From: a virus
Direction: 5' to 3' (one strand)
DNA length: 24,234 nucleotides
Virus genome (UHGV): UHGV-0124819
The notes below the pieces were generated by a model, which worked only from the letters and a program-made list of their open reading frames with translations, searched no databases and was not told the origin of the DNA. Every line of letters begins with the position of its first letter. The stretch's first letter is position 1. Below are positions 1-14,729 of the stretch, piece by piece. The translations under genes were made by a program, and so were the position numbers.

Positions 1-38
1 GCTGGCGGGAGTTGAACCCGCGTCCGAAATTCCTACAT
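1..38 (-). other. ssrA: Prophage attachment-site core: 3'-terminal segment of the tmRNA gene ssrA (partial, continues off the left edge)
   Basis: Reverse complement of 1-38 is ATGTAGGAATTTCGGACGCGGGTTCAACTCCCGCCAGC, which matches from memory the tRNA-like 3' end of enterobacterial tmRNA (T-arm GGGTTCAACTCCC, acceptor GCCAGCTCCACCA). The match breaks at position 39, where AT-rich phage DNA begins, as expected for an att duplication rather than the intact gene. Confidence 0.7.
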
Positions 39-154
39 ACCATTTTGACTATAATAAAAACATATATTTATGTTTTAAAACAGTACGTTAGTGTTATTTT
101 GTTTTTGTCGGTTTTACACATTTTTAATGCTCTGCCGCCAAGTTGTCGCCATTG

Positions 155-1138
155 CTAATTCCTATCAGCAGGTAGAATTGCTGGGTAGAGCTTAGAGCAA
201 TCATTGCCATAGTCAGGGATAAAGTCCCATAGCCCTTTTGGCGTTTGGAAGACCTCAGGGCTTAAGCCAATCAGCATATAAACATGAACTAACAGCTCGC
301 GCAATCCAGTGACCATTTGCTTTATTTGTTTTTCATCAGAGAAAGAAGTGGTGAAGGGTTTTTCTTCAATGGAGTCAAAAAGAATAAACTCATGTTTTTC
401 ATATCGATAGTCGATCCCTAATTCTCTGCAAAGTTGGATAATATTGATTTCGAGCATTTGAAGGGAAATCACTTGGATATCATAAGAAGTCTCTTTGTTG
501 TAACAGCTTTTAATAGCTTTGTTGATATTCTTATAATAATCTTGAACTCTACCCATAAATAATGAACTTATTTCTTTGCTATAGCCTTCTTCAATAGAGG
601 ATTTTGTAAAAATATTCATGTAAAGAATATAAGGGTGAGAAATGGAAGGTTCTATATATTTTTTTCCATCATCGTGTTCGGTAAACTCTCTACTAACGAT
701 AAATGAAGGGACAGTTTTAAAAATATCGGCATAACTCTTCTGGTGGGCATAAAATGAATCAGATTTATTTTTTGCTTTTACCAGCTCTATTTGATGCTCT
801 GTCCTTGAAAGCTGCGTCTCTGTTTGAATGGTCCTGTGAATATTCTTAACTATAGCTCCAAGAGGTACTGAACTGGCTAGCAGCATTAGAGGGAATTTAC
901 TGATTTCGTAAAAGCGAGTATAGCCGTGGGCACTTAACACCGGGACCTTGCCCCACCATGCGAAAATCCCAAAATAAAAGAATGATAATACTGGTATTCC
1001 GATTGATAACCAGAATAATTTCTGTTTTATAAGGTTTTGTTCATTTAATAAATACCACTTGTATTTATATGTTAAATACAATATGTATATTAACATTACA
1101 ACATAGAACATAATGCCAATTGATGAATAAAGGGTCAT
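155..1138 (-). CDS. Hypothetical membrane-anchored protein: N-terminal 2-3 transmembrane helices plus a ~230-aa soluble domain; AT-rich cargo (moron) gene between int and att
   Basis: 327-aa ORF. Hydrophobic N-terminal segments IGIMFYVVMLIYILYLTY and LFWLSIGIPVLSFFYFGIFAWW, with a possible third, FPLMLLASSVPLGAIV. Start ATG at 1136-1138 overlaps the int stop codon in an ATGA arrangement. Composition is strongly AT-biased and Lys/Ile/Tyr/Asn-rich, unlike the neighbouring int. No recognisable catalytic motif. Confidence 0.65.
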   Translation of the reverse strand: MTLYSSIGIMFYVVMLIYILYLTYKYKWYLLNEQNLIKQKLFWLSIGIPVLSFFYFGIFAWWGKVPVLSAHGYTRFYEISKFPLMLLASSVPLGAIVKNIHRTIQTETQLSRTEHQIELVKAKNKSDSFYAHQKSYADIFKTVPSFIVSREFTEHDDGKKYIEPSISHPYILYMNIFTKSSIEEGYSKEISSLFMGRVQDYYKNINKAIKSCYNKETSYDIQVISLQMLEINIIQLCRELGIDYRYEKHEFILFDSIEEKPFTTSFSDEKQIKQMVTGLRELLVHVYMLIGLSPEVFQTPKGLWDFIPDYGNDCSKLYPAILPADRN

Positions 1139-2163
1139 GCTTTTTTCCAGTCTAATTTGTAAAGTGGATTTTTTGTTACAGCATCTTCCAAGTGATCAGG
1201 GGCAAAGTGAGCGTAAACCATCGTCATTTTTATATCAGCATGGCCCAGAATATCGCGCAGTACCAGTATATTTCCGCCGTTCATCATAAAATGGCTGGCG
1301 AATGTATGGCGCAGTACGTGGGTGCACTGGCCCTCTGGCAGTTCGATACCGGCTCGCTTTACTGCACGCTCAAAGGATTTTCTGCATGGGGTAAATAATC
1401 TCCCCCTGTTTTTAGGTAGTTCGTCATACAGTTCTTGAGATATTGGAACGGTTCGGTTTTTTTTACCTTTGGTCTTGGTATAAGTAATGCGATATTTTGA
1501 TAACTGATGCCCTTGCAGGTTTTCTGCTTCACTCCATCGGGCACCAGTTGCTAGGCATATTTTTGCAATCATCAACAGACTGGGACTCTGAGAATCAGCA
1601 CAGGCATCCAGTAGGCGTTTAATTTCTTCCGGGGTCAGGAATGCTAGTTCACCCTCAGCGATTTTAAATGTTGGCAGCCCGACGAGAGGATTTGGTGCTG
1701 ACCAGTGGCCTAGTTTTTTCAATGTGCCGAAAACCGATGATAGGTTACGTTGCTCAAGATTCACCGTGCGTGGTTTTACTGGCGACATTAGTGTGCCGTC
1801 TTCGTTACGAAGGTCACCTTTTAACCGTGCTTCGCGGTATTTCGTAAAGTCTCCGGCTGTCAGTTCTGAGGCGATGGGGTCGCCTAGACCATTACAGATA
1901 ATTCTAAGTTTCGCCATGAGGCGCTTGGGGTCTGCGAGTGTCTGACCATACAGGGAATACCAAAGCTCAATTAACTCTGATAGGCGTCGCCGATCATCCT
2001 TTTCACCCAACCACGGTTTTTTATTCACTTCTTCCATTGTGAAGCTTTCAAACGCAATGGCTTCGCCTTTCGTGGCAAATTGCTTACGCACGCGCTTGCC
2101 ATTGCGTCCATTGGGATAGCACTCACACAACCATTTTCCGTTCGGCTGTTTTCTGATGGTCAT
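1135..2163 (-). CDS. int: Tyrosine recombinase, P2/186-type phage integrase
   Basis: 342 aa. C-terminal catalytic signature ARWSEAE ... HVLRHTFASH ... LGHADIKMTMVYAH (R..H-x-x-R..Y). Position immediately downstream of cI and next to att. Confidence 0.95.
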   Translation of the reverse strand: MTIRKQPNGKWLCECYPNGRNGKRVRKQFATKGEAIAFESFTMEEVNKKPWLGEKDDRRRLSELIELWYSLYGQTLADPKRLMAKLRIICNGLGDPIASELTAGDFTKYREARLKGDLRNEDGTLMSPVKPRTVNLEQRNLSSVFGTLKKLGHWSAPNPLVGLPTFKIAEGELAFLTPEEIKRLLDACADSQSPSLLMIAKICLATGARWSEAENLQGHQLSKYRITYTKTKGKKNRTVPISQELYDELPKNRGRLFTPCRKSFERAVKRAGIELPEGQCTHVLRHTFASHFMMNGGNILVLRDILGHADIKMTMVYAHFAPDHLEDAVTKNPLYKLDWKKA

Positions 2164-2164
2164 A

Positions 2165-2797
2165 TCAAAGGCTCTTAATGATTTTCAGTGCGCGGCCTAC
2201 TACCTCAATGTCATCCAGGCCGCACTCAAACGATGAATCATCCTGATGCACTACTAATTTGTTTCCCGGGAGTCGAGTCAATTTAACAATGCTTTTTATC
2301 CCGTCGATATCGACTAACCACATACCATTTACTAGTGGTGTTTGGTTGCGATCTATTAAATAAGAATCACCAGAAGTAGTCACCAGCAGTAGGTTGCTTG
2401 AGTTTGAGGGGAGTATGCTGCTATCAATGATTGCTTTTCCAGCATCGATCAATAAACCACCGTTGAGAGTCGCCTTGTCAATTTCAGGAGATACTAGTTC
2501 AGAAAGAGGTATAACCTTGCTGGAGTTCACGGAATTGATATTTTTTTTGGGTTCAATGTTTGAACCTGGCTCCCCCTGTCCGGTGGTTAGCCACAGTAAA
2601 GAAACTCCTGTTTCCAAGGCGCACTGAATCACCCACTCTGCAGGAAAACTATCTCTTAAGTATCTGTTTGCCATGGTACTTTTTGATGCGCCTAAGTGAT
2701 CGCAAAGTTGCTGTCTGGACTTGAAATCATAGGCTGCCATTAGTCTATGGATAGCCTCTCTTCCCCCTGTATTCTCTCCAGCCTTTACCTGTATCAT
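2165..2797 (-). CDS. cI: CI-type immunity repressor
   Basis: 210 aa. N-terminal HTH-like segment KSTMANRYLRDSFPAEWVIQCALETGVSLLWLTTG. Sits divergent to the early operon, with its stop 1 nt from the int start, matching the 186 cI-int lysogenic operon layout. Confidence 0.8.
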   Translation of the reverse strand: MIQVKAGENTGGREAIHRLMAAYDFKSRQQLCDHLGASKSTMANRYLRDSFPAEWVIQCALETGVSLLWLTTGQGEPGSNIEPKKNINSVNSSKVIPLSELVSPEIDKATLNGGLLIDAGKAIIDSSILPSNSSNLLLVTTSGDSYLIDRNQTPLVNGMWLVDIDGIKSIVKLTRLPGNKLVVHQDDSSFECGLDDIEVVGRALKIIKSL

Positions 2798-2809
2798 TTT
2801 TTAATCCTG

Positions 2810-2861
2810 TTGACGTATCAAATATTTGATCGTAGTATCTAGATGTATCAAATATTGAATC
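2810..2861 (+). promoter_or_regulatory. Lytic promoter (pR-like) with embedded palindromic operator and a second operator-like repeat in the cI/apl switch region
   Basis: -35 TTGACG (2810-2815), 17-nt spacer, -10 TAGTAT (2833-2838). The spacer contains the perfect 14-bp palindrome ATCAAATATTTGAT (2817-2830). A near-repeat GTATCAAATATTGAATC lies at 2845-2861. Confidence 0.5.
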
Positions 2862-4992: not shown

Positions 4993-5846
4993 GCACCATC
5001 CTGAAATGGGCGGGAAATAAAACCGCCATTATGTCCGAACTGAAAAAGCATCTTCCTGCTGGCCCGCGACTGGTTGAACCTTTCGCGGGTTCCTGTGCAG
5101 TGATGATGGAGACGGAGTACCCCAGCTATCTTGTTGCGGATATTAATCCTGATTTAATCAACCTCTATAAAAAGGTTGCTGCTGATTGTGAATCATTTAT
5201 ATCTCGCGCCAGAGTTTTATTTGAGATCGCAAACAGGGAGGTAGCTTATTACAACATAAGGCAGGAGTTTAATTACTCAACTGAAATTACTGATTTCATG
5301 AAAGCGGTATATTTCCTGTATCTCAATCGTCACGGTTACCGTGGTTTATGTCGCTATAACAAGAGCGGGCATTTCAACATTCCCTACGGTAATTATAAAA
5401 ATCCGTATTTCCCTGAAAAAGAAATTCGCGCATTTGCAGAAAAAGCCCAGCGAGCAACGTTTATCTGCGCCAGCTTTGATGAAACGCTGGCGATGTTGAA
5501 GGCGGGGGATGTGGTGTATTGCGATCCGCCGTATGACGGTACGTTTTCCGGCTATCACACTGATGGTTTCACTGAAGATGACCAGTATCACCTGGCATCC
5601 GTTCTTGAACATCGGTCATCAGAAGGACATCCGGTCATTGTTTCTAACAGTGACACATCCCTGATCCGTTCGCTGTATCGCAATTTTACTCACCACTATA
5701 TCAAGGTAAAACGCAGCATCGGTGTGGCAGCTGGCGAGGGTAAATCAGCAACAGAAATCATTGCTGTTTCCGGGCCGCGCTGCTGGTTGGGATTTGATTA
5801 TTCGCGTGGCGTGGATAGTTCTGCCGTGTACGGAGTGCGTGCATGA
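4989..5846 (+). CDS. dam: DNA N6-adenine methyltransferase (Dam-like)
   Basis: Start ATG at 4989 overlaps the TraR stop (ATGA). Motifs KWAGNK, SAM-binding EPFAGSCAV, and catalytic DPPY (CDPPYDG). Confidence 0.9.
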
Positions 5847-8257
5847 GCCATGCTGATATGAACAACTGCAGCGGCTTTAACGAGGCCGCCGCAGCATTCT
5901 CATGGAACAGCCCGAAAAAGGCTATTAACCCTTATCTGGACCCGGCGGAAGTTGCGCCGGTTTCTGCGCTTTCAAACCTGATCACTCTGTACGCTGCCGA
6001 TAACGAGCAGGAACAACTGCGCCGCGAGGCACTGAGTGATCAGGTCTGGGAGCGTTATTTCTTTAATGAATCCCGTGATCCTGTCCAACGCGAAATGGAG
6101 CAGGATAAGCTCATTAGCCGGGCAAAGCTGGCGCATGAGCAGCAGCGTTTTAATCCGGACATGGTCATACTGGCGGACGTTAAAGCCCAGCCCTCCCATA
6201 TCAGCAAGCCGCTGATGCAACGTATTGAATACTTCAGCAGCCTGGGCAGGCCAAAGGCTTATTCCCGCTATTTGCGTGAGACGATTAAGCCATGTCTGGA
6301 ACGACTGGAGCATGTACGCGACAGTCAGCTATCCACTTCTTTTCGCTTTATGGCAAGCCATGAAGGGCTGGACGGCCTGCTGATCCTGCCTGAAATGAGT
6401 CAGGATCAGGTGAAACGCCTGTCTACTCTTGTCGCTGCGCATATGAGCATGTGTCTTGATGCCGCTTGTGGTGATTTGTACGCCACCGATGATGTTAAGC
6501 CAGAAGAAATCCGCAAGACATGGGAAAAGGTGGCAGCAGAAACCCTGCGACTGGATGTCATACCGCCTGCGTTTGAGCAACTCCGCCGGAAAAGAAACCG
6601 CCGTAAACCCGTACCCTATGAACTCATTCCGGGTTCGCTGGCGCGTATGTTGTGCGCCGACTGGTGGTATCGGAAATTATGGAAGATGCGTTGCGAATGG
6701 CGGGAAGAGCAGTTGCGTGCTGTTTGCCTGGTCAGCAAAAAAGCATCTCCCTATGTCAGCTATGAAGCCGTGATGCATAAACGTGAGCAGCGCCGTAAGT
6801 CGCTGGAGTTTTTCCGTTCTCATGAACTGGTGAACGAAGACGGCGACACGCTGGATATGGAGGACGTGGTAAACGCCAGTAGTAGCAACCCGGCGCATCG
6901 CCGCAATGAGATGATGGCATGTGTTAAAGGTCTGGAGCTTATCGCGGAAATGCGCGGTGACTGCGCCGTTTTCTACACCATCACCTGTCCGTCACGTTTC
7001 CATTCCACGCTAAATAACGGCAGGCCCAACCCAACCTGGACAAATGCGACGGTAAGACAAAGCAGTGATTATCTGGTCGGCATGTTTGCTGCATTTCGTA
7101 AGGCGATGTACAAAGCCGGATTGCGCTGGTATGGCGTGCGGGTGGCTGAGCCGCATCATGACGGTACAGTTCACTGGCACCTGTTGTGTTTTATGCGCAA
7201 AAAAGATCGCCGCGCCATTACTGCTTTGTTGCGTAAGTTTGCCATCCGTGAAGACCGCGAGGAGCTGGGTAATAACACAGGACCACGCTTTAAGTCTGAG
7301 CTGATAAACCCGCGCAAAGGTACGCCAACAAGCTACATCGCGAAATACATCAGTAAGAACATTGACGGGCGTGGTCTGGCTGGCGAGATCAGCAAGGAAA
7401 CGGGTAAATCCCTGCGTGATAACGCTGAATACGTTAATGCCTGGGCGTCTCTTCATCGTGTTCAGCAATTCCGCTTCTTTGGCATTCCGGGGCGTCAGGC
7501 TTACCGTGAACTGCGATTGCTGGCTGGTCAGGCGGCAAGGCAACAGGGGGACAAAAAAGCAGGTGCGGCGGTACTGGATAACCCACGCCTTGATGCCATC
7601 CTGGCTGCTGCTGATGCTGGTTGTTTTGCCACCTACATCATGAAGCAGGGCGGCGTACTGGTTCCCCGCAAATATCACCTCATCAGAACCGCTTATGAAA
7701 TCAACGAAGAGCCGACCGCCTATGGCGATCACGGCATTCGTATTTATGGCATCTGGTCACCCATTGCAGAGGGCAAGATCTGCACTCATGCAGTGAAGTG
7801 GAAAATGGTTCGTAAGGCCGTTGACGTTCAGGAGGCGGCAGCCGACCAGGGCGCTTGCGCCCCTTGGACTCGTGGCAATAACTGTCCCCTTGCTGAAAAT
7901 TTGAACCAACAGGAGAAAGATAAATCAGCTGATGGGGACCCCAGAACGGACATTACCCGCATGGATGACAAGGTGTTGCACGATTACCTGCACAGTATGA
8001 ACAAAAAGGAGCGCCGGGAATTGGCTGCAAGGTTACGTCTGGTGAAACCGAAACGGCGTAGAGACTACAAACAGCGAATTACAGACCATCAACGACAGCA
8101 GCTCGTCTATGAACTGAAATCCAGAGGATTTGATGGCAGCGAGAAAGAGGTCGATTTACTCCTTCGCGGCGGCAGTATTCCGTCAGGAGCAGGCCTGCGT
8201 ATCTTCTATCGGAACCAGCGTTTGCAGGAAGATGATAAGTGGCGGAACCTGTATTAA
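5843..8257 (+). CDS. A: Rolling-circle replication initiation endonuclease (P2 gpA family)
   Basis: 804 aa. HUH-type motif VHWHLLCF and tandem catalytic tyrosines YIAKYISKN. Start overlaps the dam stop (ATGA). Confidence 0.9.
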
Positions 8258-8349
8258 TTACGCTGGTTAACAATTCGTGCTCTTAATAATACCAGGCATA
8301 TCAGGCTGATAAGCGTAAATAAACGTTTTACATCAGTAAGATTATTATA

Positions 8350-8369
8350 TACTGTAAATATAAACAGTG
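8350..8369 (+). promoter_or_regulatory. LexA operator (SOS box) overlapping a candidate promoter for the tum-like/DinI-like genes
   Basis: TACTGTAAATATAAACAGTG has the CTGT-N8-ACAG core (CTGT 8352-8355, ACAG 8364-8367) and is close to the consensus TACTGTATATATATACAGTA. -35-like TTTACA at 8327-8332. Confidence 0.7.
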
Positions 8370-8410
8370 GTTATACATACAGTATTGCGTGTGGTGTCAT
8401 AGGAGGAAAG

Positions 8411-8599
8411 ATGCAGGACTATTTTTTGGAGTCTTTGAAGCTCCAGCGCATTGATTTTTTTCTTAAGCTTGTAGCGGCTAGTGAGTGTAGTGATGAAGAG
8501 AAGGGGCTGGCTCTGCAGTGGGTTTCTGAATTGACTGATGAACTCATGGCAAAAATCAGAAGCCACGAATACAACCGCTCAATGGATGTCATCAACTGA
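8411..8599 (+). CDS. Hypothetical small protein in the position of the 186 tum (SOS-inducible antirepressor) region
   Basis: 62-aa ORF, ATG at 8411 with SD AGGAGG at 8401-8406. Lies directly downstream of the LexA box. Confidence 0.5.
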   Translation: MQDYFLESLKLQRIDFFLKLVAASECSDEEKGLALQWVSELTDELMAKIRSHEYNRSMDVIN

Positions 8600-8609
8600 G
8601 GTGACTTTT

Positions 8610-8843
8610 ATGTGCATTGAAATAATGATCGATAAAGAGCAGAAGATTAGCCAGTCTACCCTGGACGCCCTTGAATCCGAGCTTTACCGCAATCTGCGCC
8701 CCCTGTATCCCAAAACGGTAATCCGTATCCGTAAAGGTAGCTCTAACGGTGTGGAACTGACCGGACTGCAACTGGACGAAGAAAGAAAACAAGTGATGAA
8801 AATTATGCAGAAGGTGTGGGAAGACGACAGCTGGCTGCATTGA
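8610..8843 (+). CDS. DinI-family protein (DNA-damage-inducible protein I-like)
   Basis: 77 aa, MCIEIMIDKEQ...LDALESEL...QKVWEDDSWLH. Aligns by eye over its full length with E. coli DinI (MRIEVTIAK...IDALAGEL...QETWESADDW). SD GAGGTG upstream. Confidence 0.8.
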   Translation: MCIEIMIDKEQKISQSTLDALESELYRNLRPLYPKTVIRIRKGSSNGVELTGLQLDEERKQVMKIMQKVWEDDSWLH

Positions 8844-8897
8844 TTTTGTCAATAGACGCTTGTTTTTACTAATCAAAAAGGGTTACATATGAGTGAG

Positions 8898-8931
8898 AGG
8901 CGATGTCAATCAGATATCGCCTTGTTTTTTG
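8898..8931 (+). terminator. Intrinsic terminator after the DinI-like gene
   Basis: Stem AGGCGAT / ATCGCCT (8898-8904 / 8916-8922) followed by TGTTTTTTG. Confidence 0.55.
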
Positions 8932-8956
8932 TCAAGAAAAGAATAATAGGCTAAAA

Positions 8957-9634
8957 ATGAAAATTAATAACGTAGCGTTACCAATATCTCTTGCTGTAAT
9001 CCTAACTGGTTGCGTGCCACATGCTTCTAACCGAAATATCACTGCTATTGAAGTGGTGAAGCCTGCTATTGGGCAAAGTGCTACCGCCTACATGGGCGAT
9101 CCCATTATCACATCTGCTACTGGATTTAAAACGGACGTACTAGAACTTGGTGCGGCTAATGGTGCATTGTCTTCTATCGCTGCTGGTACATATTGCAGTG
9201 AGGGGAATGGAATTTACCGCAATTATCATAACCCTCAAGCTGTTGCGTTAAAAAATCTCTATGGGCAAATCGGTAACTATGTTGATTATGTTAGTTACGA
9301 TGCTGCAAAAAATGAGATATCACCGCCAAATGGTACTTCTTATACTGCATCAGAAATTTCTATCAAACGTGTTCCTGATGGGCTGTGTCGAGTTAGTAAC
9401 TCATTGGTTAAGACTATCGAATACAATGGAAATGCAGGCGGTGTAATGAAGTTCACCTATCGTGAATTTGCAAACGATATGGCTCGTGCAGCATTTACAA
9501 CAGATTTTTCTGTAGATTCTAAGGGAAGTGACGTTATCGCTTACAAAGGTGCCAAGTTCAAAGTGAACAAGGCTGATAACTCGTCTATTTCTTATACAAT
9601 TATTTCTGGCTTTGACAAGGCTGTCACGTTCTAG
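8957..9634 (+). CDS. Lipoprotein of unknown function (moron)
   Basis: Signal peptide MKINNVALPISLAVILTGC with lipobox LTGC. 225-aa Gly/Ser/Thr/Asn-rich mature part. AT-biased. Bracketed by terminators at 8898-8931 and 9739-9765. Confidence 0.75.
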   Translation: MKINNVALPISLAVILTGCVPHASNRNITAIEVVKPAIGQSATAYMGDPIITSATGFKTDVLELGAANGALSSIAAGTYCSEGNGIYRNYHNPQAVALKNLYGQIGNYVDYVSYDAAKNEISPPNGTSYTASEISIKRVPDGLCRVSNSLVKTIEYNGNAGGVMKFTYREFANDMARAAFTTDFSVDSKGSDVIAYKGAKFKVNKADNSSISYTIISGFDKAVTF

Positions 9635-9738
9635 GTTTCACGCTTGCTGAGTATGTTACGATTTTGCACATTCTGCATAAACGCGCATGTCTATGCTGCA
9701 TGAGATCGCATGATCGTTTGAGGATCTTTTGTGTTAAG

Positions 9739-9765
9739 GCCCGCCAGTTCTGGCGGGCTTTTGCG
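9739..9765 (+). terminator. Intrinsic terminator
   Basis: Perfect 8-bp stem GCCCGCCA / TGGCGGGC (9739-9746 / 9751-9758), loop GTTC, then TTTTGCG. Confidence 0.7.
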
Positions 9766-9807
9766 TAGATCATGCAGGTGCATGAAAACCACTACATAAA
9801 GCGGGCA

Positions 9808-9826
9808 GGCGTGGCGGGGATACGAG
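9808..9826. other. Candidate cos site (19-nt cohesive-end region)
   Basis: GGCGTGGCGGGGATACGAG begins with GGCGTGGCGGGGA, matching the first 13 nt of the 186-type cohesive end as I recall it (GGCGTGGCGGGGAAAGCAT). GC-rich element in a non-coding gap between the replication and portal gene blocks. Confidence 0.45.
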
Positions 9827-9973
9827 CGCGCGCAAGGTATAGAAACAGTCGTTTGTTTACAAACAGATACTATGATTTTCAATGTTCTTTCAAATTGTTG
9901 CTTTAAGATAGCAGGTAGATGTTTGTAGTTGTTGCGTGAACTGATAAGCTTCTACAACTATCGAGGAAAGGAT

Positions 9974-11041
9974 ATGAAGCGGCTAACTGAAGAACAAATT
10001 GAACATTCTTTGATCAGAGCAAGGAAGATTGCGAAGCGGGAGTCAAGAAAGCTTTCTGGTGGAAGACGGATGCTACAGCCCATGCGGGTATTCTCTCGTG
10101 TGAGAATACCCGCGCCTGCGTCATTGGACTTATTTAATACTAAAAATTACAAACTATTTATAGAGTTTATCACTTTAATAAGAGATTACATCAATGATGG
10201 TGAGAAAATTTTAATAGATTTCAGAAATACAAAATCTCTGAAAGCATGTGCAGTAATCGTATTGTATGCACATATTGACTTTTTACAAAGGCAAACAAAA
10301 GATAAAAATATAATTTCTATTACTACGTGCGGTTCATCCAGGGCAAATAACTGGTTTAAAATATGTGGTATTTGGGGGATTACAGGGTTTCAGCGTATAG
10401 CTGCAGATAAGCTTAATTCAATGGAAATTGTTTCCGCTGTTGCAGGCAAAACTAGAGATGATCATGAAAGTGCCGAAGCAAGACAAAAAATTAAAAATAT
10501 TCTACGTTATATAAAAGATACCATTTATGAAGGTAAGATTTCCGCTTCGGATGGTGTGAAATTATATGCAGCCTTAACTGAATCTATTAGCAATGTTGGT
10601 CTACATGCGTATTCAAATGAAGAACAGTTCTCTGAATTTATTGAGGACATTGGTAAAAGATGGTGGATATTGGCACACAAAGTCGAAGAACAACTATTTT
10701 TGATGGTGTATGATATGGGAGAAGGTATCCCAGTTACATTGGTTAAAAAAGACTTTTTCACATTTATCGCTCAGATATTTAATCCTAAGACGGATTCTGA
10801 TAAAATATTCGCGGCTGTACAGTATGGTGAGACAAGAATGAATAGTCAGAAGCATGGTAAAGGATTACCTGATATGAAAAGGTATGTTGTAGATAACCCT
10901 GAGGGGCAGTTACATATTTTTAGTGGAATGGGACGATATTCTTATGATGCTGAAAATAATGTTGAAGATAAATTTGATCTGCCATACTCCATAGGTGGAA
11001 CCCTTATTCAATGGAATGTAAGTTTGAGAGGTGCTGAATGA
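9974..11041 (+). CDS. Cassette gene 1: protein with a C-terminal GHKL-superfamily ATPase/kinase domain (RsbW/SpoIIAB-like) and an N-terminal domain of unknown function
   Basis: 355 aa from ATG 9974 (SD GAGGAAAGG). N-box-like LTESISNVGLHAY (10580-10612; compare SpoIIAB SEAVTNAIIHGY), G1-box-like YDMGEGIP (10709-10732), G2-like HGKGLPD (10853-10873). AT-rich. Confidence 0.6.
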   Translation: MKRLTEEQIEHSLIRARKIAKRESRKLSGGRRMLQPMRVFSRVRIPAPASLDLFNTKNYKLFIEFITLIRDYINDGEKILIDFRNTKSLKACAVIVLYAHIDFLQRQTKDKNIISITTCGSSRANNWFKICGIWGITGFQRIAADKLNSMEIVSAVAGKTRDDHESAEARQKIKNILRYIKDTIYEGKISASDGVKLYAALTESISNVGLHAYSNEEQFSEFIEDIGKRWWILAHKVEEQLFLMVYDMGEGIPVTLVKKDFFTFIAQIFNPKTDSDKIFAAVQYGETRMNSQKHGKGLPDMKRYVVDNPEGQLHIFSGMGRYSYDAENNVEDKFDLPYSIGGTLIQWNVSLRGAE

Positions 11042-11358
11042 AAATCAAAGAGATACATGTTGCTGAAGATTTTTCAGATGTTCCCTATGGCCGCTATGAT
11101 GAGGATGGTCCTGATAATGGACAACGTTTCCGTGAAAAGTATCTTTTGAAAGCCATCCAAGATTATGATGAGGTGCACGTGTACCTTGATGGTGCTATGG
11201 GTTATGGTTCTTCATTCTTGGAAGAGGCGTTTGGTGGACTTTATAGAACAAATAATATAGATAAAGCTATAATTAGGAAAAAATTAAAAATATTTACTGA
11301 TTTGGATTTCCTCAAGGATAGTATATGGGGATATATTTCTGATGCTAAAAAGGAGTGA
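11038..11358 (+). CDS. Cassette gene 2: small acidic protein, possibly STAS-like (anti-sigma-factor-antagonist-like, DUF4325-type)
   Basis: 106 aa. ATG overlaps the gene 1 stop (ATGA at 11038-11041). Segment VHVYLDGAMGYGSSFLEEAFGG (around 11200-11235) resembles the SpoIIAA/RsbV pattern h-h-D-x-S/G-x-h-x-h-DSSGLG. Confidence 0.5.
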   Translation: MKIKEIHVAEDFSDVPYGRYDEDGPDNGQRFREKYLLKAIQDYDEVHVYLDGAMGYGSSFLEEAFGGLYRTNNIDKAIIRKKLKIFTDLDFLKDSIWGYISDAKKE

Positions 11359-11363
11359 TGTTC

Positions 11364-11852
11364 ATGGATGAACTTCCGGTTTATCTGCGGTTATTACAAT
11401 ACCTTGCTAGTTCAGGTGTGATTGCAATTCTAACAGCCTTGATTGGTTGGGTTTTTGTTTATAGAAACTCCCGTGCGTTGCAAAAGAGGAGTGAAACATG
11501 GTCAATTGTAAAAAATGTTTCAGATAATTTAAAGGAAATTGAATCTGCATCAAGAAAGTTTTGGATACCGGGAGATTCAAAAGAAATTGATGCAATGTCA
11601 TTTCAAAATGAGATAACAGCACTTCTTGCGGAGACCGAGCGGTGGTTGAATCATCTAAAACAACGCATTAATATCGAAGGTGACTATAAACCTTTGATTG
11701 CTGATTTATTCAAAGATGCTACATCTAATATTGAAAAAGCACAGGAGTATGATAAAAGTCAAAGGACAAGAATTAGTGTATTAGTGTCAAAAAGGGCGAA
11801 AATAATTAAATCTCTAATTGATGAGTCTTATCAGAAAAAATTCTTAAAGTGA
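11364..11852 (+). CDS. Cassette gene 3: single-pass membrane protein with a C-terminal coiled-coil-like region
   Basis: Likely ATG at 11364, 9 nt after SD AAGGAG and 5 nt after the gene 2 stop. TM helix VIAILTALIGWVFVY, then a charged heptad-like Lys/Glu-rich region. AT-rich. Confidence 0.6.
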   Translation: MDELPVYLRLLQYLASSGVIAILTALIGWVFVYRNSRALQKRSETWSIVKNVSDNLKEIESASRKFWIPGDSKEIDAMSFQNEITALLAETERWLNHLKQRINIEGDYKPLIADLFKDATSNIEKAQEYDKSQRTRISVLVSKRAKIIKSLIDESYQKKFLK

Positions 11853-11862
11853 TAATTTGTTA

Positions 11863-11891
11863 CGGCACGGTAGTGCCGTAGTTTTTTTTCT
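11863..11891 (+). terminator. Intrinsic terminator closing the three-gene cassette
   Basis: Stem ACGGCAC / GTGCCGT (11863-11869 / 11874-11880), loop GGTA, then a T8 run. Confidence 0.75.
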
Positions 11892-11937
11892 TATTATGTG
11901 TTGAGCGATGGATGTCCTATTAAGTGATGTAAATGTA

Positions 11938-12963
11938 TCAGAATGAATATATTTCAAATTCTATTATTTTTTTATCAAGCCATTCATTTATCTCTCCTAA
12001 GCGTTTTTGTAATGGTATAAGTTCGTTTCGTACAAACACTTTACTTGCTTTCTCCACATCCCCAAACCCCCCAACATTATTAGGCATAATCCCCATCATC
12101 TGAGGCGGCACGCGGTGCGCTGCCATCATGTCATCCCGACTCACGTTCTTGATATTAAGAAATTCATCCTTCGCCGCGACTTCTGACAATGGGATGATCT
12201 GAAGCCCGTCCTTTTTGCCGTTAGGCGAGTACATAAACAGGTTGCGGAAGTTGCCTGGACCTTTGGCGCTTTTCATCGCGTTGCGGAGGTTGTTCACATC
12301 CTCCTGGTTTTGTGCGGCATCGGTCATGTACATGATAAAGCCCGCATGGCTGCCGTTAATGTAATACTTGCGACGGAACAGCGTGGCGGACTCGTTGAGC
12401 AGGGCTGACGGAATGGCAGAAAGATAACCGGGCAGGCCGTAGATCTCCTGGTTGATGTCCGGTTCCATCAGATGAAAGATGCTGCCTTTCGTGAACTGAT
12501 ATGGCTGCGTGGTCATACCGTATTGCACAAACCAGTAGGTATCCAGGTCTAACCCGCGTCGGGTGTATTTTGCCAGGGCAGGTTCAAGGGCGATAACTTC
12601 ACCGAAGCGGTTCGTGCGTTTCTCCAGGTAGGCGTTACCAAATACCAGATAGTCCTGCACAAAACGCGAAAAAGCCTGCTGGCTGAGCAGCGGGTGAGGG
12701 ATGTAGGTGCTGGTCAGAATGTTGCACTTTACTGCAATCGGGGAACTATGATGCACGGCAGCGCGGAAGGTGCGCGCCAGTCCGTCAAAGCTGACGGGCG
12801 GCTCATACCAGCGGTCCATCTGTACGCATTCCACATAATCCAGCAGTTCTCGGCGGTCCAGAACAGGAACGGGATCGCCGAAGCTGAATGCTTCGGCTGT
12901 AGTTTGACTTTTAAGCTGGATCTGTTTCGTCGCCGCAGTGCGGTTCTTCTTACTCTTTCCCAT
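11938..12963 (-). CDS. Q: Portal protein (P2 gpQ family)
   Basis: 341 aa, the size and position of P2 gpQ. Convergent with the cassette and immediately followed (upstream on the minus strand) by the terminase gene. Assigned by synteny and length. Confidence 0.9.
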   Translation of the reverse strand: MGKSKKNRTAATKQIQLKSQTTAEAFSFGDPVPVLDRRELLDYVECVQMDRWYEPPVSFDGLARTFRAAVHHSSPIAVKCNILTSTYIPHPLLSQQAFSRFVQDYLVFGNAYLEKRTNRFGEVIALEPALAKYTRRGLDLDTYWFVQYGMTTQPYQFTKGSIFHLMEPDINQEIYGLPGYLSAIPSALLNESATLFRRKYYINGSHAGFIMYMTDAAQNQEDVNNLRNAMKSAKGPGNFRNLFMYSPNGKKDGLQIIPLSEVAAKDEFLNIKNVSRDDMMAAHRVPPQMMGIMPNNVGGFGDVEKASKVFVRNELIPLQKRLGEINEWLDKKIIEFEIYSF

Positions 12964-14729
12964 CAAAAAATCTCCACAATATTGCTGGTATTGGCGGATT
13001 CGCCCTGCAGCGGTTCGTTAAACAGTGCGTGCATCGTTGCCCAGGCCAGATCGGCGTGGCTGGCTTCTTCGCTGCGGCTGGCTTCATAGGTCGGGCGGTT
13101 GCCACTGGCGGTGGTGGCGCGACGGATTGCCATGAATGACTGCGCAATGTCGGTGTGCCCGGCGTCAAACTCAAGACGGCGGTGGCTGATAATGTCGTAG
13201 GCCTTGAGTACCAGGGCGTTTTTAACGTTGGGGTTGTAGACAAACTCCCGGACGGCAGGAAAAAACGCTTTCACGTTCTCGTAAACCCCGTGACCAACGC
13301 CGGTTGAGTCGATGCCGATATAGGTCACGTTGTACCGTTCGGTCAGTTTTTTGATGGCGTCAGCCTGGGCGCGAAAGTCCATTCCGCGCCACTGGTGACG
13401 CTCAAGAATGCGGAACTTACCGCCCGGCACGGCTGGCGGTGCCACCACCACGCATCCGGCGCTGTCGCCGTTTTGCGTACCTTTTGCCGGGTCATAACCG
13501 ATCCACACTTCGCGCCAGCCAAACGGGCGCAGAGCCAGTGCATGAAAGTCGGTCCAGACTTCCCAGCTGTCCACCATGCACGCCTGCAGCTCGCTGAGCG
13601 GGAACACGGACGCGAGATCGTCCACGAACTCACACATCAGCAGGTTCTGGTATTCGTCCGGGCTGTATTCCATGCGTAACTGGTCGAGGTCGAACAGGTT
13701 ACATCCGCCGCGCACCGCATCTTCTACGGTGACTATCTGGCGGTATTGCCCGTCTGCGCACAGCAGGCCGGGGGCCAGATTGCTGTGGGACAGGTCGATG
13801 TCCACCTTATCGGCTTTGTTGCGCCCACGGTTGAACAGCGCACCGGACCAGAACGGATAAGCACTGTGTGTCAGACTGGATGGCGTGGAAAAATAGGTCT
13901 GTCGCCATTTCTTGTGAATAGCCATACCGGAAGCCACTTTGCGCAGCTCCTGGAATTTCGGTATCCAGAAATATTCATCCAGATACAGGTTGCCGTGATA
14001 ACTCTGGGCCGTGCGGGCATTGGTGCCGAGGAAGTAAAGCGTGGCCCCGTTGGGAAGCACCATCGGATCACCTTTCAGCTCCACCTCCACTTCTTTGGCG
14101 AAGTCGATGATGTACTGCTTAAAGACGTGGGCCTGTGCCTTGCTGGCGGAAAGGAAAATCTGGTTACGTCCGGTCAGCAGAGCGTCAATCAGGGCTTCAC
14201 GGGCAAAATAGAAGGTCGCGCCGATCTGGCGTGACTTCAACAGGTTGCGGATGCGGTTGGTTTTTCCGGCTTCCCACCAGTGGCGCTGGTAGTTGAACAT
14301 GGAGGAATGGAAGATTTCCTCCAGCTTTTCAATCTGTTCATCGGTGAAAACGTTCTTTTCCGGCTGACGACGCGGGCCTTTGTTGCGGTTGGCGACGTTA
14401 GGGTTTAAGTCGGCTTCGTTGCCGCCATTGTTAAACTTGCCGATCCGCGCGTGGCGCTCAGACTGGCGCGCCAGCAGGTCAATCTCTTTGAAATCTTTCC
14501 CTTCTTTGTGCTCCTTCATAATGAGCTGGCAGTAGCGGGCGGCGGTGGTGAGCTGCATCTGATCCAGCGGCCCATAGTCACCCCACTTGTCGCGTTTTTT
14601 CCAGCTGTGAACGGTTGCAACTTTCTCGCCCAGCATTTCAGCAATGCGGGCTACGCGGTATCCCTGAAAGTACAGCAGCATGGCCTGCCGACGGGGATCG
14701 AGATCTGCGGGTGTCAGTGTGGTGTTCAT
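12963..14729 (-). CDS. P: Terminase large (ATPase) subunit (P2 gpP family)
   Basis: 588 aa, the size and position of P2 gpP, in the Q-P operon divergent from O. Confidence 0.95.
   Translation of the reverse strand: MNTTLTPADLDPRRQAMLLYFQGYRVARIAEMLGEKVATVHSWKKRDKWGDYGPLDQMQLTTAARYCQLIMKEHKEGKDFKEIDLLARQSERHARIGKFNNGGNEADLNPNVANRNKGPRRQPEKNVFTDEQIEKLEEIFHSSMFNYQRHWWEAGKTNRIRNLLKSRQIGATFYFAREALIDALLTGRNQIFLSASKAQAHVFKQYIIDFAKEVEVELKGDPMVLPNGATLYFLGTNARTAQSYHGNLYLDEYFWIPKFQELRKVASGMAIHKKWRQTYFSTPSSLTHSAYPFWSGALFNRGRNKADKVDIDLSHSNLAPGLLCADGQYRQIVTVEDAVRGGCNLFDLDQLRMEYSPDEYQNLLMCEFVDDLASVFPLSELQACMVDSWEVWTDFHALALRPFGWREVWIGYDPAKGTQNGDSAGCVVVAPPAVPGGKFRILERHQWRGMDFRAQADAIKKLTERYNVTYIGIDSTGVGHGVYENVKAFFPAVREFVYNPNVKNALVLKAYDIISHRRLEFDAGHTDIAQSFMAIRRATTASGNRPTYEASRSEEASHADLAWATMHALFNEPLQGESANTSNIVEIF

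Follow-up and report, generated by a model that had tools for sequence, protein, structure and literature searches.

A mobile single-gene cassette between the integrase and the attachment site of a 186-type P2-like prophage encodes a membrane protein with a possible anti-phage role

The virus genome UHGV-0124819, analysed here as one window of 24,234 nucleotides (nt), represents a P2-like prophage of the 186 type and carries a gene for a membrane protein of 327 amino acids (aa) between its integrase gene (int) and its attachment site (att). This gene, hereafter the cargo gene, is a mobile single-gene cassette: it lies between int and the att core, it is replaced or absent in close relatives, and its composition deviates from that of its surroundings. 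The explanation we put forward, with a probability of about 0.5, is that the cargo product is a lysogen-expressed single-protein anti-phage membrane protein which would unite a cytoplasmic sensor with a membrane effector.

The distribution of the gene was followed in three surveys. Among 5426 complete Escherichia coli genomes, 223 carry an int at least 80% identical in DNA, and only seven of these contain the cargo gene (18 if any family member detectable at the DNA level is counted). In seven sister prophages examined from E. coli, each slot occupant is encoded on the int strand. The occupants comprise two proteins of the cargo family (353 and 309 aa), two GapS1-like proteins (510 and 508 aa, the latter annotated as GapS1 family protein), an HNH protein of 331 aa and two members of a third family (418 and 419 aa); the HNH domain excepted, they have no match in Pfam or PADLOC. 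The viral survey covered 80 IMG/VR contigs with an int at least 85% identical, in which eight occupant families as well as empty sites are found: 19 contigs hold the cargo family, 22 a family of ~400–420 aa, five a GapS1-like gene and about ten something else, and 24 show no ORF (open reading frame) of at least 80 aa after int, at least 11 of them with the att core 123 nt after the int stop codon. Across 80 species representatives with a more distant int, many more unrelated ORFs, or nothing at all, lie tightly 3′ of int. Most of the int–att occupants surveyed are orphan proteins. The initial annotation had regarded the gene as horizontally acquired cargo, for which different genes at the int–att position of related prophages would speak; such genes do occur, the slot holding at least eight unrelated families or none. 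The commonest occupant is an unrelated soluble family of ~395–424 aa, present in 22 of the 80 viral contigs with near-identical int, whose members (loci L092, 753–2009; L095, 724–1983; L009, 6022–7296; and 22 loci among L176–L254) have no Pfam or PADLOC match.

The borders of the exchanged segment are visible in alignments. Identity to 69 related int loci drops from ~0.85 to ~0.25 over the last 30 nt of int, and megablast matches of related prophages end at query positions 1160–1173. On the att side, the 123 nt after the int stop codon in empty-slot prophages (L195, L182) align base for base with window positions 1–152, including the repeat ATGGCGGCAttTTGGCGGCAG at 132–152. Based on the identity drop at the end of int and the alignment to empty sites, the cassette is placed at positions ~153–1165, and by these alignments the last ~10 int codons and the start–stop junction are supplied by each cassette itself. 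In line with this, the ~10 C-terminal residues of the integrase (1135–1165) vary with the cassette, integrases of 334 to 342 aa are encountered, and replacement of the tail of this enzyme seems to be tolerated. Two loci carry tandem cassettes after int (L173, ~5990–8100, and L111). In L173 both are family members, and a remnant of the arm-like sequence TTTTGGCGACAGAGCAATAAAAAT separates them, which suggests that the arm region accompanies cassettes when these are exchanged or duplicated. Such precise borders suggest how these phages exchange cargo without damaging int or the phage attachment site (attP). The stretch between the cassette and the att core has a G+C content (GC) of 30% and contains a repeated ATGGCGaCAacTTGGCGGCAG motif at 132–152. 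By analogy with the organisation of attP in phage 186 (PMC7498355), it is probably the integrase arm-site or integration host factor (IHF) arm of attP.

The cargo gene itself begins at an ATG that overlaps the int stop codon, as had been claimed in the initial annotation; both the sequence and a RefSeq coding sequence (CDS) confirm this. On the minus strand the junction reads AAA AAA GCA TGA CCC, with the ATG at 1138–1136 and the int stop codon at 1137–1135, and the identical 984-nt CDS is deposited as WP_052521740.1, a ‘hypothetical protein’. A competing third-party annotation (TPA) places the start at Met15 and gives a product of 313 aa (P0001), but residues 1–14 are conserved among the 327-aa orthologues (alignment A1), which supports the overlapping ATG as the start. 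The gene has a GC of 35.0% (35.7% at third codon positions, GC3) compared with 46.6% for int, 43.8% for the repressor gene cI and 50.3% for the whole window. It falls into the 2nd percentile of GC among all 984-nt windows and departs from the composition of the phage backbone (44–53% in neighbouring phage genes), so that its reported AT-richness relative to int and cI is upheld.

The cargo ORF has 64 homologues in a word-indexed search and 462 clusters at 50% identity in an exhaustive one, and the ratio of nonsynonymous to synonymous substitution rates (dN/dS) is 0.086 against an orthologue from Cedecea (76% identical), dS being saturated in this comparison. These numbers argue for a real gene rather than a chance frame, and for purifying selection over short distances. 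Conversely, one might see in it a decaying or non-functional ORF in AT-rich edge DNA, a view to which three of the seven E. coli copies (strains 33-6, 58-3 and FREC5) lend something, as they measure 985 nt instead of 984 and bear a +1 frameshift at an A7 tract in codons 157–158. In the frameshifted copies inspected (L259, L260), a single G or A is inserted at the GG-A7 tract (window ~659–668), precisely in the linker, modelled with low confidence, that joins the conserved module to the variable domain (both described below), and the annotated CDS is split or truncated. Such an insertion may indicate a dispensable or costly gene; it could be a true inactivation, a slippage switch or a homopolymer sequencing error. 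For the gene as a whole, decay is highly improbable and effectively refuted by the conservation data, namely the low dN/dS and the invariant residues across the 462 clusters; moreover, the predicted fold is confident (pLDDT, the predicted local distance difference test, of 86–87), and a frame of 327 open codons in DNA of 35% GC is very unlikely to arise by chance.

The host element shows the gene order cI, int, Apl/Cox-like, CII, Fil, DUF5347, DUF2732, TraR, Dam and gpA replication endonuclease. Because of this order and its insertion at ssrA, it is identified as a 186-type P2-like prophage of the Fels-2/SopE-phi kind, and phages of that kind have been reported to integrate in ssrA (PMC3448106). 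The att end of the window is recognised by the Rfam model RF00023 for transfer-messenger RNA (tmRNA) with 48.4 bits (E=2.6e-18; minus strand, cut at the 5′ end) in identical DNA of E. coli SCU-106 (L001). The stretch at 1–40 matches all 5426 E. coli genomes, and in related loci the att core continues as ...CCCGCCAGCTCCACCA. The position between int and att given in the initial annotation therefore stands, with the tmRNA 3′ end at 1 to ~40 and int at 1135–2163, and by its location the cargo gene is inside the phage and would travel with it. In SCU-106 (L001, 1–6000) the prophage adjoins a ~47-nt ssrA 3′ fragment, not an intact ssrA, and this fragment is preceded by an IS3 element and by remnants of ypjA/autotransporter; other strains have an intA-like integrase as the neighbour on the left. 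The fragment and the intA-like neighbours suggest that several elements occupy the ssrA site in tandem.

In P2-like phages the repressor and int form a lysogenic operon, which is transcribed from Pc in P2 and pL in 186. In the window, cI and int are 1 nt apart and int and the cargo gene overlap by 4 nt. The sole promoter-like site on the cargo strand that lies upstream of and outside the gene is at 2821..2793(-), at the start of cI. A scan of the window detected no promoter-like site between cI and the cargo gene, and no intrinsic terminator is found 3′ of the latter. The Shine-Dalgarno sequence is weak (GGA at −12 to −10), which fits re-initiation coupled to the translation of int. From the gene packing, the lack of a promoter-like site between cI and cargo and the operon structure known for P2 and 186, we infer that the lysogen expresses the gene constitutively at a low level, as third cistron of the cI–int operon. 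In 186, pR and pL are arranged face-to-face (PMC7498355). The coordinates of these and the protein features are collected in Table 1.

Table 1. Features of the cargo gene, its product and their surroundings in the window (UHGV-0124819).
Feature	Position	Strand	Basis
Cargo CDS, 327 aa, predicted inner-membrane protein of an unnamed family (phrog_17460; RefSeq WP_052521740.1)	155..1138	-	ORF call, homologues, dN/dS
ATGA, cargo start codon overlapping the int stop codon (putative translational coupling)	1135..1138	-	sequence
att core, ssrA (tmRNA) 3′ end, prophage boundary (end coordinate approximate)	1..40	-	Rfam RF00023
Conserved AT-rich region adjoining the att core, right border of the cassette	41..152	-	alignment to empty slots
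Exchangeable cassette (last ~10 int codons, cargo gene and 2–3 nt)	153..1165	-	identity drop, empty-slot alignment
Tyrosine integrase (int), 342 aa, Fels-2/186 type, ssrA-specific	1135..2163	-	Pfam Int_N 8e-29, Phage_integrase 1.4e-24
186-type CI repressor (cI), first gene of the presumed cI-int-cargo lysogenic operon	2165..2797	-	Pfam Phage_CI_repr 5e-31, Phage_CI_C 4e-28
TM1 (predicted), residues 2–25	1064..1135	-	hydropathy and AlphaFold2
TM2 (predicted), residues 41–61; conserved F42, P49, S52, Y55, F56, G57, W61	956..1018	-	alignment, hydropathy, AlphaFold2
TM3 (predicted), residues 82–97; P83 invariant; L87, P92 conserved	848..895	-	139 representatives
Conserved juxtamembrane helix (predicted cytoplasmic), residues 99–134	737..844	-	near-invariant columns in A1, A2
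Variable domain (predicted cytoplasmic), residues 141–327, helical bundle with beta-hairpin	158..718	-	model

The N-terminus had been described as two or three transmembrane (TM) helices ahead of a soluble domain of ~230 aa, and hydropathy and AlphaFold2 indeed give three helices followed by a soluble part of this size. Hydrophobic segments at residues 2–20, 41–59 and 79–97 coincide with AlphaFold2 helices (2–25, 40–61 and 70–141; full model pLDDT 86, predicted template modelling score (pTM) 0.62). In the model, a single unbroken helix of residues 70–141 crosses the membrane and runs into the cytoplasm, where it leads into an alpha/beta domain. Modelled alone, residues 99–327 yield a helical bundle with a beta-hairpin (pLDDT 86.8, pTM 0.81). 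Family statistics were drawn from 139 diverse representatives, together with a 57-sequence alignment for the locus search. TM3 is free of charged residues in all 139, with a mean hydropathy of 2.19. The mean net charge of the representatives is +0.88 in loop 1, −0.87 in loop 2 and +0.81 in the 20 residues after TM3, and 11 members have an extra N-terminal hydrophobic segment with an N-terminal tail of net charge +2.3. From these loop charges and the positive-inside rule we infer an N-out, C-in topology with three TM helices, which would place the 19-aa loop in the periplasm and the variable domain in the cytoplasm.

Conservation is unevenly spread over the protein. The conserved N-terminal part covers residues ~30–140 (alignments A1 and A2), and its most conserved section within the family is the predicted periplasmic loop 62–80 together with both flanking TM helices; this 19-residue loop after TM2 holds G63, P66, G72, F76, E78, I79, S80 and K81. 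The juxtamembrane helix carries the motif N-I-H-R-T-I-Q-T-E-x-Q (H-x-T-x-Q-T-x-x-Q-I in its family form), with H101 and Q105 invariant in the 139 diverse members, and a second conserved patch, K123-N124-x-x-D127-x4-H132-x-K134; the motif is retained in members from Pseudomonas and Pantoea. Mean pairwise identity is 0.65 for residues 30–140 and 0.25 from residue 141 to the end. Relative to the query, sequences P0023–P0063 are 61–72% identical in the N part and 13–20% in the C part, whereas P0012–P0021 are 52–58% identical in the N part and 36–40% in the C part. This discordance between the similarities of the N-terminal module and the C-terminal domain indicates that the predicted cytoplasmic domain is exchanged between lineages.

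The strong conservation of the loop and its flanking helices also bears on a different way of protecting the lysogen. The protein could bring about superinfection exclusion without cell death, blocking genome delivery or an early membrane step in the manner of P22 SieA, T4 Imm or HK97 gp15. The TM hairpin and the periplasmic loop would then contact the host entry machinery or the ejection apparatus of the phage. This is unlikely, if far from negligible. An inner-membrane protein that is probably made in the lysogen and encoded in a known defence hotspot would suit such a role. Conversely, two thirds of the protein, the variable part, are cytoplasmic by charge statistics, which is unexpected for a block on the periplasmic side. 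Known superinfection exclusion (Sie) proteins are also much smaller than 327 aa. No exclusion-annotated PHROG was matched, only phrog_17460, in a comparison made at the level of these families and not with individual Sie proteins directly. Nevertheless, a conserved periplasmic loop is not explained by a simple model of cytoplasmic sensor and membrane effector, and it keeps alive both exclusion and the idea that the conserved part is the sensor.

In the initial annotation the protein could not be assigned to a known family, and searches for known relatives bear this out. Pfam and NCBIfam scans of the cargo protein gave no match, PADLOC-DB v2.0.0 contains no family at E≤1, and a profile search of PDB sequences with the cargo family returned nothing below E=0.47. 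The only library match is phrog_17460, for which no function is annotated (E=2.7e-51; residues 6–284 against profile positions 4–285 of 343). Homologues with a name are all ‘hypothetical protein’ (Escherichia, Salmonella, Citrobacter, Klebsiella, Enterobacter, Cronobacter, Cedecea, Raoultella, Pectobacterium, Pantoea and Pseudomonas), and tblastn against 50,697 phage records produced only two partial matches. Literature searches found no paper that mentions the family accessions or phrog_17460, and nothing on Fels-2 and anti-phage activity. When the 139 diverse relatives were scanned one by one, no Pfam or PADLOC family recurred and no enzymatic Pfam domain appeared in any of them. Weak DctQ matches in 13 of the 139 were taken as TM noise, and Acyl_transf_3 is weakly matched in two. 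About seven members show weak sporadic PADLOC matches (best 2TM_IV with E=4.4e-5; PycTM, KwaA and CARF_TM with 0.002–0.02), each to a different model, which fits noise from hydrophobic segments. The initial annotation had also named two findings that would speak against cargo, a conserved core gene with host-like composition and homology to a housekeeping or phage structural function; neither was seen.

The initial annotation had called for a structure prediction with Foldseek; the model is confident, and Foldseek against the PDB returned no match at E≤0.001. As modelled, the fold appears to have no informative solved counterpart in the PDB. An assignment of the helical bundle to HEPN was considered and dropped because cytochrome b562, HPt and FAT domains reach the same scores as HEPN/KNTase_C-like bundles and no catalytic residue is conserved in the variable domain; the four-helix bundle with conserved Rx4-6H that marks the HEPN superfamily is not found. 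What emerges is a sizeable family with no PADLOC, Pfam or NCBIfam model, to which current defence annotation is blind. Hotspot cassettes in P2-like prophages are a known kind, and the membrane-protein family is uncatalogued.

The genomic company of the family differs between close and distant members. Among 80 IMG/VR loci that carry a family member, a Fels-2/186-type int (76–100% identical) lies upstream in 77; in 75 of the 80, int is directly adjacent, with cI beyond it. Of 57 distinct int–family junctions, 16 have the ATGA overlap, most others range from −16 to +5 and a few are disrupted or tandem. The 77 loci and the spacing of the 57 junctions point to tight coupling to int as a conserved feature in Enterobacterales. 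An almost constant translational coupling to one integrase lineage could be read as a sign of a prophage-selfish, int-linked function, such as a membrane-stress sensor of excision or induction, or an addiction toxin. We regard this as quite improbable, as distant members sit in tail-gene hotspots far from any integrase and no antitoxin-like partner is present. Int does not need the cargo, since in many prophages with the same int the slot is empty or taken by an unrelated gene. An accessory role for Int was rejected in view of these prophages and of the distant members located away from int.

The distant members (33–44% identity, confined to the N module) occupy accessory slots of P2-like or other prophages. 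In Pantoea agglomerans the gene lies between gpS and gpV. The members from Pseudomonas protegens and P. saxonica lie where the tail-fibre cluster ends, one of them directly downstream of a DUF4238 gene; the other is 3′ of a RelA_SpoT gene and has a Gp49/HTH_37 pair and a Dam methylase nearby. In P. solani, MqsR/MqsA and a DUF4325 operon of three genes share the prophage accessory region with the family member. HigBA-like and MqsRA modules are among these neighbours. Relative to its locus, every member examined is AT-rich; for the distant ones GC is 0.37–0.45 versus 0.56–0.60. In three Pseudomonas regions (L257, 6969–9065; L256, 6533–9065; L255, 6899–9029) the family member is directly downstream of a same-strand gene, at a distance of 24–166 nt; the upstream partners are DUF4238, a 433-aa RelA_SpoT protein and a 322-aa orphan. 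Each pair may form a unit of two genes; alternatively, the place upstream of the family member may itself be another variable slot. Strong resistance to T7 is conferred by one DUF4238 protein of the P2 hotspot on its own (PMC9122126).

These neighbourhoods are also relevant to the view that the gene is a lysogenic-conversion or fitness factor unrelated to phages, carried as a moron, with a role in envelope physiology, bacteriocin immunity or host interaction. The int–att cargo of other phage groups includes O-antigen modification genes, whose products are likewise membrane proteins with AT-rich genes, most slot occupants are orphans, and the anti-phage role of the cargo is itself putative. Nevertheless, a fitness factor is improbable here. 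The cargo protein has no glycosyltransferase, acyltransferase or Gtr signature, distant members neighbour defence and toxin–antitoxin genes and not virulence genes, and GapS1 alternates with the cargo in the same slot; furthermore, the swapping of domains and the extreme divergence at one fixed slot are reminiscent of an arms race. A Gtr/Oac-type O-antigen modification cargo as in P22- or Sf6-like int–att intervals was rejected, there being no GtrA, GtrB, GtrC or acyltransferase Pfam match and only three TM helices.

The anti-phage reading draws on the polymorphic, GapS1-bearing slot, its listing as a hotspot, the defence-gene neighbours, the architecture of the protein and purifying selection. 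GapS1 is an experimentally validated single-protein defence whose homologues protect E. coli, with a capsid protein as the trigger (10.1101/2023.03.28.534373). The int–att interval of P2 is listed as a minor defence hotspot with 3% of the recognisable P2 defence systems in one study (PMC13586616), and the iLund4u preprint refers to a ‘third hotspot’ between tail protein and CI (10.1101/2024.10.15.618418). The TM proteins of systems from P2/P4 hotspots are seen as suicide effectors (PMC9122126), and PdpSau is a membrane-anchored single prophage protein that acts by abortive infection with membrane depolarisation (PMC10127798). In the proposed mechanism, the protein would be made at a low level in the lysogen, translated in coupling with int as the third cistron of the cI–int operon. 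The variable cytoplasmic domain would act as the sensor for some component of an invading phage, upon which the conserved membrane module would disturb the inner membrane through depolarisation or leakage. This disturbance would abort the infection to the benefit of the prophage. That the protein acts against phages in some way is mildly favoured, and the specific division into sensor and effector domains is more doubtful.

Several points weigh against this explanation. The protein has no homology to a catalogued defence protein in PADLOC v2 and no structural analogue in the PDB, and its fold offers no link to sensing or to the formation of pores. Guilt by position is a weak argument; most slot occupants are likewise uncharacterised, and expression in the lysogen is putative. 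The conserved module with its 19-aa periplasmic loop could be the sensor or a host-binding part and not the effector. The frameshift in three of the seven E. coli copies belongs on this side as well.

A bolder form of the anti-phage reading, doubtful at present, is that the family constitutes a new class of stand-alone membrane immune receptor of P2-like phages, in which recombination joins a constant three-TM module, with the H-x-T-x-Q-T-x-x-Q-I juxtamembrane helix and the conserved periplasmic loop, to interchangeable cytoplasmic specificity domains. If so, phages would re-target one membrane-killing or membrane-sensing device through the swap of a single domain. In a still more radical version, the periplasmic and TM part would sense genome injection as in Kiwa, and the variable domains would be novel effectors. 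The combination of a conserved module with swapped domains offers an experimental handle on specificity. If an anti-phage role is validated, a widespread single-gene family (462 clusters; Enterobacterales, Pseudomonas and Pantoea) would join the prophage-borne defences, and the int–att slot of the Fels-2/186 type would be far richer than 3% of recognisable systems suggests.

The window contains a second AT-rich island at 8260–11900 (GC 0.33–0.45), which corresponds to the classical P2 hotspot between gpA (5843–8257) and the portal gene (11938–12966, minus strand). Its ORFs are all on the plus strand (8538–8843, 8903–9634, 9929–11041, 11038–11358 and 11355–11852) and include, besides a DinI-like gene and a gene for an orphan of 243 aa, an operon of three overlapping genes, whose products are a protein of 370 aa that weakly matches HATPase_c, a STAS-like DUF4325 protein of 106 aa and an orphan of 165 aa. 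PADLOC recognises none of the island proteins. A homologous three-gene operon in the same order occurs in the Pseudomonas solani prophage accessory region (L255, 1756–3781; 27%, 42% and 24% identity). The operon is a candidate for an uncatalogued three-gene defence system.

Compared with known systems, the int–att slot fits the general pattern of P2-like hotspots, which are described as old/tin between gpA and gpQ, Z/fun in the tail region and a minor one at int–att (PMC9122126; PMC9519451; PMC13586616; 10.1101/2024.10.15.618418). It shares with them a gene-sized variable slot, conserved phage flanks and AT-rich, rapidly turning-over cargo that includes a validated defence, here GapS1. It differs in that the cargo family and most int–att occupants are not recognised by PADLOC, and the available portions of the hotspot papers make no mention of exact cassette borders or of translational coupling to int. 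The membrane effectors CBASS 2TM/4TM and Pycsar PycTM, SLATT-type proteins and Kiwa KwaA resemble the cargo protein in a short TM hairpin followed by a cytoplasmic helical region; unlike them, the cargo has no PADLOC or Pfam match and no adjacent cyclase, TIR or partner gene, its only neighbours being int and att. HEPN/KNTase_C-type helical bundles (AbiV, YutE and the C-terminal domains of LinB and ANT) offer a further comparison that stops short of assignment to HEPN. GapS1, a PD-(D/E)xK protein, is likewise encoded by a single gene on the int strand, at the very same site in sister prophages, and combines sensor and effector in one polypeptide, as proposed for the cargo. The two are unrelated in sequence, and GapS1 is soluble with a nuclease-like active site, whereas the cargo has three TM helices and no recognisable catalytic domain. 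PdpSau from Staphylococcus aureus prophages belongs to another phylum and phage group and has one membrane helix. The likeness is functional and architectural only; it shares the N-terminal membrane anchor, the cytoplasmic C-terminal part and its nature as a single prophage accessory protein. PdpSau is the nearest functional precedent and serves as the model for the mechanism proposed for the cargo protein.

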